Origin: Candidatus Heimdallarchaeota archaeon
GTDB lineage: Archaea > Asgardarchaeota > Heimdallarchaeia > Heimdallarchaeales > Heimdallarchaeaceae
Length of the DNA: 64,000 nt
NCBI GenBank assembly: GCA_030603365.1
Contig: JAUVXV010000011.1
Location: 1 to 64,000 of the forward strand
Direction of reading: 5' to 3'
Both the position numbers and the translations under genes were made by a program. Below, piece by piece: positions 1 to 5,293 of this stretch (position 1 is the stretch's first letter; the number at the start of each line of letters is the position of its first letter). The notes below the pieces were generated by a model. It saw only the letters and a list, made by a program, of their open reading frames with translations, did no database searches and was not told the origin of the DNA.

Positions 1-139
1 AACCTCAAGCACGGTTCTGTGAGGGGCGTCGAATATCCTTTTATGATAGAATAATGCGACACTCCTTACATCGAAAGAGAGGAGAAACAGGGAATACAAA
101 GTATATCTAAGAAAGGAGATTTAAAGATGTCTACTCGAC
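1..139 (+). mobile_element. 3' end of a group II intron (distal domain V plus extended domain VI), truncated by the window edge
   Basis: ACGGTTCTGTGAGGGG (11-26) is the typical DV/DVI junction. GAGGGGCGTC (21-30) pairs with GATGTCT[A]CTC (126-136), leaving A133 bulged, and the segment ends in CTACTCGAC (139), the canonical 3' terminus. Confidence 0.85.
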
Positions 140-357
140 AAGAAAAAGTGGAAGCAGCTTTGGAGAAGATAAGACCATCTCTTCAAGAAGATGGCGGAGA
201 TGTTGAATTGGTAGAAGTAACTACAGATGGAGTAGTAAAAGTAAAATTAACCGGTGCCTGTAGCGGATGTCCCATGAGAGAGATGACTTTACAGATGGGC
301 ATTGGCAGAGTGTTAAAGGAAGAAGTTCCCGGAGTAAAAGAAATTGTAGCTGTATGA
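127..357 (+). CDS. NifU/NfuA C-terminal-domain Fe-S cluster carrier protein
   Basis: IRPSLQEDGGDVELV...GACSGCP (CxxC) NifU-C signature; RBS AAGGAG at 113-118. The first 13 nt derive from the intron end. Confidence 0.9.
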   Translation: MSTRQEKVEAALEKIRPSLQEDGGDVELVEVTTDGVVKVKLTGACSGCPMREMTLQMGIGRVLKEEVPGVKEIVAV

Positions 358-837
358 TTATTAATCTAATAAAATAATAAATATATCTTTTATTATTGTA
401 TTAACCTTAAAAATCTTAAATTTTTTTAAGATTTTAAAAATCATTGTTAAAGATAATTATTTATAACATAGTCTCTTCAGTCAGCGGGAATGACATATAT
501 ACGTTATATGAAATAAGTTTTGAGTTTTGAATTATGGTTTTTCGCTTTCCGTTTTAAATTTTTAGCTATATAACAATAATTGAAAACTGATTTTCTTTGC
601 GAGATACGATTCACGAGATACTAATTATGTTGGAAATATTGATTTTAAATCTAGATAAATGTATTATTATATAAAAGCAATAAATAGGTATTTTAAAAGA
701 AGAATAGCAGAAGAATTAAGATGCAAAATACATTTTACCTTTCAGTGAAAAAGTTCTTTATAAAAAATTATAAAATATTTTTATTTAAATACAATGACAA
801 GGGGTTAATTGCTTGTTTATTAAAAAATTATCTCATA

Positions 838-886
838 AAAGACAGAGCGGGGAAAATTCTTAGAATATTTCTTACTCTGTTTTTTT
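838..886. terminator. Long hairpin flanked by A/T tracts, possibly a bidirectional terminator
   Basis: AAAAGACAGAG..GGAAAAT / ATTTTC..CTCTGTTTTTTT imperfect inverted repeat. Confidence 0.4.
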
Positions 887-950
887 ATTGCATGAATGCT
901 TATTGTATTAGCTAATTTAAATAGAAATAAAAAATTATTTTTAGTAATCA

Positions 951-2801
951 TATGATTATCTCCCAAAAACTAACTATTTAATACAACATATTTTATTTAA
1001 GCAGCAAATTTAACTCTATATGTCCTTTGAAAACTGAATAACGAAAATAAATGGTTATATAGAAGAGTAGAAAGCTCGGGTATAGGGCTATTCATCAACC
1101 CTTTTATCAATCTCTTACAGTTTATTGCTGATATTTTAAACCCTAAGTATACTTTTCCCCGTATCAGTCCCCTTACCGGTAGATGATCTATTTTGTACTT
1201 CCTGCGAAGAACCGAGGGGATACCCTCAATCCCAGCTCTCTTTCTGGCTAACTCCTGGTACTCGAAGGTTCCCATCTTAGTGATAAGCTGGCAACGGTGT
1301 AAGGTTTTCTCTGATACTTTTAAGAGATAACTCTTCTTCTGTTCTATGACCGGACAATCTTTACGTAAGGGGCAATATTTACAGTGTTTCTTATCAAAGT
1401 GTGCTCTATAGGATCCTTCTTTAAACTTACTGGTTATCGGCTTGTGACCAAAAGGACATCCCCTTACCAGATGTTCTTTCTCATCTATCTCAAATTTATC
1501 ACCATTGCTATTTTTACCTCCCCCTACCAGGTTAGTAGGGACCATCTTTATGCCTTTGGCTCTGGCTTTTTTGTCTATGTCTTCTGAATAATAGGCACCA
1601 TCTGCAAGAGCGGTAGTACCTTTATCTAATTTGGAAATGGTATCCTTAGCGAATTTCTGGTCACTGTAGGTATTTTTTTGTAAGTCATAACCTTCTATCA
1701 TCCGATTCTTATCATCGAACTTCTCTATGATATTTGCCGTATAACCGATGTGTTTCTTCTTCCCCTTTTTACGGTAGGTAGCATCAGGGTCAGTAGGGTT
1801 TTGTAAGGAGTCAGGTGATATATGTTTAGATGACTTTCCCTTCTGTTCTTTTAACATGCGGGCAAGGAGTTTAAACTCTTTGGTCTTTCTTATCTCTTTA
1901 TCTTTTCTATATATAGAATAAAGTCTTACACCATCTTTAAGTACTTTTTTAATTTTAGTATTCAGATCTTTATCTCTTGAACGGTAGATGGTATCATTAT
2001 AATGGCTTTCATCTAAATAGGGTTTAAAGTATTCCGCCAGGGTAGTATTTTTATCTATGACCTTTATGAGTCTGGAAACGGTAGAGTAGATAATTTCTAA
2101 ACGAGATAATTTTCGGCAGGAGGAGCTTATCATCAAGGAATCCATCCGGACGGTCTTACCATCTATTTTAAGTAGTTTAGAGAAAGTTTTGGCCTGAGAT
2201 TCTATCTCTTCCTGGATAAGATCAATACCGTGTTCTTGATTGTATCTGTATGCCGCTGCCCTAAAATTGGTAAGGCTGTTTTTAGATATGGGCTGTTCCT
2301 GGAAGCTGGTAGTATGTAGTGCATGCTGGTACCTGATATCAAACATTAGAGAATTGAGGGCTTCTTCATCTGATTGGTTAAATATATCCCTTAAGATGAG
2401 AAGTCCAAAATAGACGTTTACCGGATTATTAGGCCGGGAGGCCGGATTATCACTATATAATATGCTAAATCGGTCTTCGGCTATGAAAGGGAATATCTTT
2501 TTACTGAAGGTTTCTGCCCAGGAGCTCATAAGATGTTTTATTTCTCTTTCGGTAAGTGATAATAGGGAATCGTTAATAGCCATTTGTTGTGCGTTATTTA
2601 GCTGAAAGGACATTGGAACTCTCCTTTATTTATTAGTATTTTTATGATTTATTATACCATAAAACGCAAGTAAAATAAAGGGTTTTAGCCATTTTTGCTA
2701 CTTAAATTTTCAAGGTGCATAGAGTAAGTAATTTAAATATGTTGATTAGTATTATTTGGTATTATCTGTAAAGTATGGGTACTTTTTGGGTAGTAACCAT
2801 A
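951..2801 (-). mobile_element. Insertion sequence, IS1182/IS5-like, with imperfect 19-bp terminal inverted repeats
   Basis: TATGATTATCTCCCAAAAA (951-969) versus the reverse complement of 2783-2801, TATGGTTACTACCCAAAAA, bracketing the transposase. Confidence 0.65.
997..2613 (-). CDS. DDE transposase (IS1182-like; DUF772 plus DDE domains)
   Basis: RMDSLMI, TDPDATYR, ADGAY, RAGIEG motifs; CxxCPLRxxC motif; 538 aa. Confidence 0.9.
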   Translation of the reverse strand: MSFQLNNAQQMAINDSLLSLTEREIKHLMSSWAETFSKKIFPFIAEDRFSILYSDNPASRPNNPVNVYFGLLILRDIFNQSDEEALNSLMFDIRYQHALHTTSFQEQPISKNSLTNFRAAAYRYNQEHGIDLIQEEIESQAKTFSKLLKIDGKTVRMDSLMISSSCRKLSRLEIIYSTVSRLIKVIDKNTTLAEYFKPYLDESHYNDTIYRSRDKDLNTKIKKVLKDGVRLYSIYRKDKEIRKTKEFKLLARMLKEQKGKSSKHISPDSLQNPTDPDATYRKKGKKKHIGYTANIIEKFDDKNRMIEGYDLQKNTYSDQKFAKDTISKLDKGTTALADGAYYSEDIDKKARAKGIKMVPTNLVGGGKNSNGDKFEIDEKEHLVRGCPFGHKPITSKFKEGSYRAHFDKKHCKYCPLRKDCPVIEQKKSYLLKVSEKTLHRCQLITKMGTFEYQELARKRAGIEGIPSVLRRKYKIDHLPVRGLIRGKVYLGFKISAINCKRLIKGLMNSPIPELSTLLYNHLFSLFSFQRTYRVKFAA

Positions 2802-2957
2802 AGGTAAAATTTACTTTAAGAGTAGTGCTGGTTTTTTATTATTTTTTAATTCTCAACAAATACTAATAACTTCTTCTAACTTATGATATACTTTTTCAGT
2901 CTCATCACTCATACAAAAAGTTCGAAAATCGTTTTGTTGGGGGAGCTTGCTAATTCC

Positions 2958-2990
2958 AAGCCCTTTGGCATTTTGCTGAAGGGCTTTTTA
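2958..2990 (+). terminator. Rho-independent terminator-like hairpin
   Basis: AAGCCCTTTGGCA-TTT-TGCTGAAGGGCTT stem-loop followed by a T tract. Confidence 0.6.
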
Positions 2991-3366
2991 ATTTTTTAAA
3001 TTATTTTTTAAAAAAAAGAAGGATTTTAATCTAAAGAATGAGTAATTATAAAAATGGTGGATATACCTTTCTGGATTTTAAAAAATAATGTAATAGCAGA
3101 AAGATAAACATATTTTAGAATAACAAATTATATTGAACCTAAGATTTTTCTTAATCATACATCTATTATAGGACAGAACATTAAAATTACTTAATCATAA
3201 TTATCATTTATAGATCATAGATAATAGGTTCATTAGCTCCCATTATGCCAAAGAGATTGACACAGAATTCCCTCATTTTTAATTGGACTACTTTCATTTT
3301 ATTTGTTATCATATCTATGAAGGGTTATATAAGCACCCATACTAATATTATCATAATTAGGAAACT

Positions 3367-3581
3367 ATGAAAAGTTAAAATAATAACGAAACAATCGGGG
3401 ATAAGATAAAACTGCTTAGAAATAAGCAAGGATTGACACAGGACGAATTGGCGAGAAAGTCCGATCTTCCCTATACAACGCTTACCAAAATTGAAAGCAG
3501 TGTTATAACCAAGCCCTCTATCAAAGAGTCGAAAAAATAGCTACAGGGCTTGGAATTACAATTGATAATTTAATGAAATAA
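3367..3581 (+). pseudogene. XRE-family HTH regulator pseudogene
   Basis: MKS*NNNETIGDKIKLLRNKQGLTQDELARKSDLPYTTLTKIESSVITKPSI, then a frameshift to VEKIATGLGITIDNLMK*. Confidence 0.8.
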
Positions 3582-3614
3582 AATATATGACAAATATAAT
3601 AAAGGAGAAAATAA

Positions 3615-4313
3615 ATGGATACAAACAGAAAAACCGCAATAATTGTGGGAGTGCTATTTATTATTGGGACGGTTGCAGGAATATTAAGTGTTGTTTTTAC
3701 CAGCTCTATTCTAAATGCTCCGGATTATCTTATGAAGGTTTCTGCAAATGTAAATAAAATCATAATAGGCGCTCTCTTTGTTTTAGTTATGGGTTTCGTA
3801 CTGGCTATGGTTCCAGTTGTGATGTTTCCAATATTTAAAAAACATAATGAAGTATTAGCTATTGGTTATGTTGTTTTTAGAGGTGCCCTTGAGACAATCA
3901 CATATATTACTACTGCAATAAGCTGGTTATTACTTTTACCATTAAGTCAGGAATATGTAAAAGCAGTATCTCCGGATACATCCTATTTTCAAACTTTTGG
4001 CACTTTATTACAAAGAGTATCCCAATTGCCAATGGGTGTATTCGTTTTTGGACTGGGTGCTCTGATATTCTACTATTTATTATATCAATCAAAACTCATT
4101 CCACGATGGTTATCAGTCTGGGGTATTATTGCAATAATATTGCATTTAATAACTGGCGTCTTAATTTTATTTGGCTTACAGTCTGATTTTTCCACATCTA
4201 ATTATATTATGAATTTTCCAATATTTTTGCAAGAAATGGTTATGGCGGTATGGCTGATCGTTAAAGGATTCAACCCATCTGCAATCGCTTCCAAGTCTGC
4301 CAAACAGATATAA
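3615..4313 (+). CDS. DUF4386 family membrane protein
   Basis: MDTNRKTAIIVGVLFII start, LIPRWLSVWG and EMVMAVWLIVKGFN motifs; multiple TM helices; RBS AAGGAG. Confidence 0.85.
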   Translation: MDTNRKTAIIVGVLFIIGTVAGILSVVFTSSILNAPDYLMKVSANVNKIIIGALFVLVMGFVLAMVPVVMFPIFKKHNEVLAIGYVVFRGALETITYITTAISWLLLLPLSQEYVKAVSPDTSYFQTFGTLLQRVSQLPMGVFVFGLGALIFYYLLYQSKLIPRWLSVWGIIAIILHLITGVLILFGLQSDFSTSNYIMNFPIFLQEMVMAVWLIVKGFNPSAIASKSAKQI

Positions 4314-4357
4314 ACGAAAGAAAATGACAAAATCAAAATGAAATTGAAGGAAAACTT

Positions 4358-5293
4358 ATGAACGCAATTGTATGTACAAAATACGGACCGCCGGAAGTTC
4401 TTCAGCTCAAAGAAGTAGAAAAACCTACTCCCAAGGACAATGAAGTACTGATAAAAATTCATGCGGCAGCGGTAACAGTCTCGGACTGTATAGTTCGAAG
4501 TGGCAAAGTAAATATCTTGCTATGGATCCCCATGCGCATATTTATTGGTTTTAGAAGACCAAGAAAACCTATACTGGGGTTAGAGTTAGCCGGACAAATT
4601 GAAGCAATAGGCAAAGATGTAAAACAGTTTAAGAAAGGAGATCAAGTTTTTGCATCTACCTTATGGTCGAAATTTGGAGGTTATGCTGAGTATAATTGTA
4701 TGCCTGAAGACAAGGTACTTGGCATAAAACCGGCTAATATGACATTTGAGGAAGCAGCTACTATCCCTAATTCAGGAATAACTGTATTAAAGATTCTTCG
4801 TAAAGCAAATATCCAGAAAGGACAGAAGGTTCTAATCTATGGTGCTTCAGGAAGTACTGGAATTACTGCAGTACAGATAGCCAAGTCCTTTGGAGCAGAG
4901 GTTACAGGGGTTTGTAGTACAAGCAATTTAGAAATGGTGAAATCATTTGGAGCCGATAAGGTCATTGATTACACTAAAGAGGACTTTACACAAAGTGGTG
5001 AGACCTATGATGTTATTTTTGATGCAGTAAGTAAGATGGAAAAGAGTAGCAAAAAGTCTCTAAAGAAGACAGTAACCTTTCTTGATGTTAACAAAGATAG
5101 TGGAGGTATGGGTAAAGCTTCAAAGGTAAGAGAAGACTTAGTCATCCTCAAAGAGCTATGTGAGGCAGGAAAATTCAAAGCGGTTATAGATAAGCGATTT
5201 CCATTGGAACAGACTGTCGAGGCTCATAAGTACGTTGAAAAAGGACACAAAAAGGGTAATGTAGTAATAACTGTGAAAGAAGATAAAACTTAG
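4358..5293 (+). CDS. Zinc-independent MDR / NADPH:quinone reductase-like oxidoreductase (MDR copy 1)
   Basis: [31 protein letters not shown] nucleotide-binding motif, [11 protein letters not shown] end. Confidence 0.92.

Follow-up and report, generated by a model that had tools for sequence, protein, structure and literature searches.

Our results indicate that a mobile lineage of class E group II introns targets translation starts generally, and that a replacement start carried in the intron makes such insertions tolerable, a reading to which we assign a probability of about 0.78. A member of this lineage is found at the very beginning of the 64,000-nt stretch of DNA analyzed here (the window), which is the start of contig C12 of the source genome G000. 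Positions 1-139 of the window are domains V-VI of a group II intron whose 3′ end, CTACTCGAC, stops at position 139 inside a nifU-type gene. This gene is one of many targets and has no gene-specific role. The features of the window to which the text refers are as follows:

1-5280 (no strand): bacterial-type segment that opens a Heimdallarchaeaceae contig, with its join in a tandem Zn-dehydrogenase array
1-17 (+): loop and 3′ arm of domain V (DV), from the truncated RF00029 match and the 137/139 identity to full introns; the catalytic triad precedes the contig start
21-139 (+): domain VI (DVI), long variant of 119 nt, from folding and alignment
21-30 (+): 5′ strand of the DVI basal stem, the AUG being the partner of CGU at 27-29 (CAU in most relatives)
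31-42 (+): anti-Shine-Dalgarno strand in the long DVI, opposite 111-122 and, within this, 33-41 opposite 112-120, with one A35xG118 mismatch
62-84 (+): inner hairpin with a GAAA tetraloop at 73-76, from folding
114-118 (+): Shine-Dalgarno (SD) core AGGAG, 8 nt upstream of the AUG
127-139 (+): intron AUG plus 10 nt (M-S-T-R and the first base of Q), phase +1 as in the native ATG-A, including the branch A133
140-357 (+): exon 2, the rest of a 73-aa Atribacterota NifU-C/NfuA-type gene, with a complete Pfam NifU domain (1-67/67) and CxxC
997-2613 (−): IS1182-like transposase with a score under the curated cut-off, present once in the genome

The 5′-truncated match to the Rfam family RF00029 spans exactly positions 1-139 and reaches 21.9 bits (E 0.039), under the cut-off because the contig starts in the middle of DV; the same truncation explains why a search of the whole window at gathering cut-offs returned no Rfam match. 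The intron end is identical at 137 of 139 positions to the full introns L035, L039 and L031, and L035 scores 53.6 bits over DV-DVI (cut-off 40) and 118 bits over D1-D4-6 in Rfam, which upholds the recognition of a group II intron end in the first-pass annotation of this DNA. The fold proposed there was also recovered, as positions 21-30 are predicted to pair with 126-136, leaving A133 as a bulge 7 nt before the end, at pairing probabilities of 1.00 for the AUG and 0.79 for the SD. The additional pairing of the ribosome-binding site (RBS, 112-120) with 33-41 is predicted here with its single mismatch, and it is retained despite substitutions in L028, L029, L032, L033 and L055, but it is not general: short DVIs leave the SD mostly in a loop. 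Chance is excluded by the comparative sequence data, the fold z-score of the window DVI (−1.94) being modest by itself. The 3′ splice site follows C139. We discarded a possible 3′ end near 56-72: similarity among all copies is lost immediately past 139, and the junction is defined by the intron-less allele. The hairpin at 62-84 is likely the η′ tertiary contact; an insert resembling it also occurs in the relatives L125 and L274, which have no AUG in DVI. In some long DVIs only, an alternative helix of 21-31 with 56-68 is predicted that would free both SD and AUG.

The open reading frame at 127-357 (76 aa) reads MSTRQEKVE. Exon 2 shares 93% and 90% nucleotide identity with the intron-less alleles L121 and L123, and the closest NifU proteins are 73 aa long, Atribacteria entries among them; an exact-protein contig look-up with the window NifU gave no match. 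The gene had been called nifU, and its NifU domain is indeed complete, but it is a stand-alone 73-aa domain of the NifU-C/NfuA type and not full-length NifU. The intron-less Atribacterota alleles L121-L124 read SD..ATGA followed directly by AAGAAAAAGTGG and match exon 2 from base 140, which places the intron behind the first base of codon 2 and supports the insertion into this codon that had been proposed. With a 5′ exon deduced from these alleles, the spliced product of the window copy would begin MKEKVE, and the unspliced one MSTRQEKVE, three residues longer. The first-pass annotation had also anticipated an RBS and ATG(N) before GTGCG at the 5′ end. Other copies do present SD..ATGN before GUGYG, but the upstream body and 5′ exon of this copy are absent from its assembly: in G000 (89% complete) we found no intron body, second copy, maturase or 5′ exon.

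A DV-DVI pattern search gave matches in one genome and 11 metagenome loci. L035 is a complete intron of 1,980 nt that starts with GUGCG and encodes a 436-aa reverse transcriptase (RT) with YADD, L039 has the same 5′ end and a frameshifted RT, and intron lengths in the lineage range from 1927 to 2049 nt. In the 436-aa RT, Pfam finds only RVT_1 and no endonuclease domain, and the D1-D4 model begins 35-65 nt past GUGYG, leaving no large 5′ insertion. The RTs score 320-476 bits to class E-like RTs versus 123 bits to that of 6ME0, which we take to be of CL type, and only 172-185 bits to the top PDB RTs, GsI-IIC among them; no close RT was found in viral contigs. RF02005 matches all eight loci tested, including L043, which is 99.0% identical to the pRmeGR4b element and whose RT groups with those of the lineage in a clade with 99/99 support. 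This element is the class E intron S.me I4 (PMC5894124), and the lineage is assigned to class E because L043 shares both the Rfam D1-D4-6 family and the RT clade with it. In the RT tree, the 14 AUG-bearing RTs lie within one 17-row clade (SH-aLRT 93) alongside three other rows. The data reject strict monophyly for the AUG-bearing DVIs (p-AU 0.025) and are compatible with one gain followed by later losses. A fusion of the host AUG to the RT was also rejected, as a stop codon closes the frame after a variable 11-46 codons. Open reading frames of 63-130 codons (L164:138-530; L170:1613-1804; L029) cross DI-DIII and either overlap the RT start (ATGA) or lie in the RT frame. They could couple RT translation to upstream ribosomes; long open frames are also present in relatives without the AUG.

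We collected 82 distinct 3′ junctions, 75 of which retain enough exon for a frame test. The frame of the DVI AUG is open for at least 50 codons at 62 of these 75 junctions, against 3 and 3 for the other two frames, and thus the in-frame start described for nifU recurs at other genes. The largest set comes from G058, a 2.9-Mb bacterial MAG with 34 near-identical intron 3′ ends at different genes, 28 of them in frame, and about 29 5′ ends at contig breaks (L056, L072, L080, L084-L114, L236-L264); the intron body was not found in this bin. Pfam domains that start at the N-terminus identify PGK, GroES and rubrerythrin among the G058 hosts and P-II in L036, and in our reading of the translations HisS, GlnA, GlnS and SerA are G058 hosts as well. 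An SD precedes the ATG at 53 of 55 5′ junctions, compared with 7% of background ATGR sites. Outside G058, all 27 junctions are ATG[A/G] with an SD, in a set from which the non-start relative L221 was left out and which does not include L279 and L272. The last base of the 5′ exon is A or G in 54 of 55 cases and exon 2 begins with A in 70 of 82, counts that represent a pattern within few intron variants and not 82 independent events, because copies within a genome or clade are related; moreover, in short-read assemblies of multi-copy introns, 5′ and 3′ flanks can be mispaired and truncations faked. The pattern ATGNGTGCG misses the G058 5′ junctions because the G058 variant starts with GUGUG. In L264 (G058:C376) and L055, one group II intron apparently lies inside another (twintrons). 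A sister intron on a Megaera plasmid (L042) is inserted after SD..TTG GGT in phase 0 at about 1003, and at 2920-2952 its DVI carries an AUG, 33 nt before the end and again in phase 0, possibly a second solution to the same problem. On the Caedibacter plasmid pKAP298 (L040, about 2830-2930), a damaged copy has the same SD and AUG end, with a frame of 10 codons that ends just before the next RBS.

Comparison of these junctions places the insertion behind the fourth base of SD-N5-10-ATG[A/G], in most cases with an A following. All aligned start-targeting members have UCAU as EBS1, which is complementary to AUGA and, by wobble, to AUGG, and pairs with them on the target. Covariation supports this pairing, UUAU facing an exon end AUAA in the nested relative L279/L283, and the EBS1 register is unchanged in the class E controls L043 and L048, whose EBS2 pairs at −13 to −9. 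The EBS2 of the lineage mostly contains CC, GG is common at −16 to −12, and an EBS2 with CC may account for part of the reading of the SD, at about −13 to −9. Cognate EBS2 pairing did not rise above shuffled assignments (p 0.10; 0.49 without L279), and L033 and L220, with no CC in EBS2, still lie at SD-led starts, so that recognition of the SD is only partly explained. We put the chances that EBS2 helps to read it at about even, and something more, either the RT protein or the state of initiation regions, probably reads it. It could be argued that EBS1 alone directs insertion at any AUGR and that selection then leaves the copies at start codons, as EBS2 specificity is not significant and about 17% of 3′ junctions are out of frame with a long ORF. 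This interpretation is very hard to reconcile with G058, where only 7.1% of 7,038 ATGR sites in 372 kb have an SD and yet 26 of 28 5′ junctions do (p about 5e-28), the copies of this one genome being identical and hence recent; neutral intergenic ATGR insertions, which should be common if EBS1 sufficed, also appear to be rare. L279-L283 look retargeted, with an EBS2 lacking CC, an exon end AATAA without an SD and a weakened SD in DVI. Where EBS2 contains CACC (L160-L168), SDs of the archaeal-style GAGGTG type occur at three of four sites, plus L272, although the sites are few.

[quoted passage not shown] Since the phase is the native one, unspliced RNA encodes the host protein plus a net three residues, and splicing would restore the native RBS and N-terminus. 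Of 26 distinct DVIs, 25 carry the AUG at 13 nt before their 3′ end, and in these folding places it in the basal stem in agreement with the first-pass annotation; its partner varies between CAU and CGU (A-U 15, G-U 10). In the 26th, L278, it is displaced by exactly one codon, three bases, and in eight class E relatives without the AUG the corresponding positions vary freely. The spacing between SD and AUG is about 6-12 nt throughout DVIs of 43-119 nt with unrelated interiors. On these sequence comparisons the DVI start looks to be under selection, and its AUG is probably used in vivo. The predicted probability that the SD is paired is 0.6-1.0 in long and medium DVIs and 0.0-0.4 in the common short DVI, and the modeled structures suggest that DVI folding and initiation are mutually exclusive. 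The calculated duplex with the bacterial anti-SD is −8.7 kcal/mol for the DVI SD versus −10.2 kcal/mol for the native RBS.

Start targeting could be real and ribosomes nonetheless ignore the DVI SD and AUG, the hosts being served by efficient splicing and the motif being kept for structure or by descent. We consider this unlikely. DVI initiation may be weak because opening the initiation region is costly, about 10-12 kcal/mol here and 7-21 kcal/mol across variants compared with 3.6 kcal/mol for the native start; GGAGA is already present in the DVIs of L125 and L274, L048 has ACG at the AUG position, a single transition away, and L110 (G058) has a stop in the DVI frame before an intact gene. 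On the contrary, conservation of the AUG is one-sided, its shift in L278 preserves the frame, the SD-AUG distance persists while DVI interiors do not, and the 5′-truncated and unspliceable copies L032, L062, L067 and L073 retain ORFs of 151 to more than 600 codons from the DVI AUG, assembly artefacts being possible for these; L279, which lies away from start codons, has a decayed SD in its DVI. Less probable still is that DVI acts as a regulated conformational switch, in which the balance between splicing and translation, and hence host output or intron mobility, would depend on conditions. Splicing and translation do need the same bases in opposite states, and in several long variants, including that of the window, the 5′ basal strand is predicted to take 56-68 as its new partner once the RBS is kept open; this helix is nevertheless missing in some long DVIs and in all short ones, and both outcomes lead to nearly the same protein, which leaves little to regulate. 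The first-pass annotation had proposed such a switch for an Fe-S gene, a proposal that finds no support, given the same intron end on dozens of unrelated genes. Because the targets are functionally unrelated, with no Fe-S link, and because both routes give nearly the same protein, an Fe-S-specific switch is very unlikely.

In the favored reading, ribosomes would use the replacement start when DVI is unfolded or not yet formed. Branching depends on this stem too, and EBS1 targets the host AUG, so that initiation at either end should compete with splicing; poor splicing on translated mRNA would explain why a backup start is retained. The requirement for a folded DVI in the first step may be relaxed in class E, because the IIE introns tested in vitro splice by hydrolysis (PMC5894124, PMC3753933). 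A bolder and rather doubtful extension is that this undescribed, widespread lineage reads SD and AUG as a homing address, that its branch helix is a working RBS, that it can occupy dozens of genes in a single genome, essential ones included, with no need to splice, and that ribosome loading at both ends gates splicing and mobility to times of low translation.

A specialized IIB1/CL1 lineage is known at start and stop codons (Michel et al. 2007), with Avi.groEL and EcKTE56.groEL as examples (PMC12584367, PMC4028801). Its members have an RT with an endonuclease, a 5′ insertion of 300-700 nt in domain I and specific housekeeping targets, and the groEL members supply a replacement signal, the stop UAA becoming UAG on insertion (PMC12584367, PMC4028801). 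The introns described here are likewise group II retroelements within or beside host translation signals, but they have a class E RT without endonuclease, no 300-700 nt insertion, any SD-ATGR gene as a target and an SD and AUG in DVI. Membership in the published lineage, which the first-pass annotation had implied, thus has to be given up, only start-codon siting being shared. The likeness to IIE introns such as S.me I4 (PMC5894124) and Cl.be.I2 (PMC3753933) extends to the Rfam D1-D4-6 family, RT clade, EBS1/EBS2 register, 3′ end, length of about 1.9 kb and lack of endonuclease. Ordinary IIE members, in contrast, recognize a specific site by pairing, and their DVI lacks an AUG.

Class C (IIC) introns insert after intrinsic terminators. 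The lineage resembles them in combining a short IBS1 with a generic expression landmark, so that each genome offers many sites and the host pays little; unlike the terminator hairpin outside genes, however, its landmark is the translation start inside them, and the built-in start offsets the cost. Its 5′ exons end in an RBS and ATG and its RT is far from GsI-IIC, which does not fit class C. IS elements and IIC-attC introns carry outward promoters. Here too the expression signal of a mobile element would restore the downstream gene, although by translation initiation from the branch-point helix and not by transcription. We found no description of an RBS or AUG in DVI in the open literature, subscription papers being outside the scope of this search. 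The mechanism by which start and stop codons are colonized has been stated to be unknown (PMC12584367); for a separate class, our results suggest a concrete and testable answer, in which the AUG is recognized by EBS1 and a substitute start comes with DVI. Targeting of translation starts would add a generic strategy beside site homing, terminators and attC, and about 30 intragenic group II introns in one bacterial genome, groES and pgk among their hosts, bear on how introns could have spread through coding genes before splicing was efficient. Gene callers already annotate host genes from the DVI AUG, which hides the intron.

The window intron should not be cited as an Asgard intron. G000 is archaeal and has its own, different nifU on contig C1 with archaeal-type signals, whereas the segment at 1-5280 most probably stems from a bacterium, is Atribacterota-like and was attached within a paralogous dehydrogenase array, either in an assembly error or through recent transfer. 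Identity to Atribacterota-type loci is 90-93% over bases 140-378; over bases 2916-5278 it is 89.5% to the outside assembly L305 and 85% to the best archaeal relative. None of 24 genus relatives matches the region from 1 to about 3,100. The IS1182-like transposase was not found in 46 other genomes of the order of the host. Caution is thus warranted with intron fragments in Asgard MAGs, which can be bacterial DNA. Two Heimdallarchaeaceae MAGs (G020 and G004) include 3-kb contigs with ordinary class E introns (L048 and L049). A conserved non-coding element at about 2905-3052 of the window recurs in the Atribacterota-type loci L122 and L123 and twice in L305.
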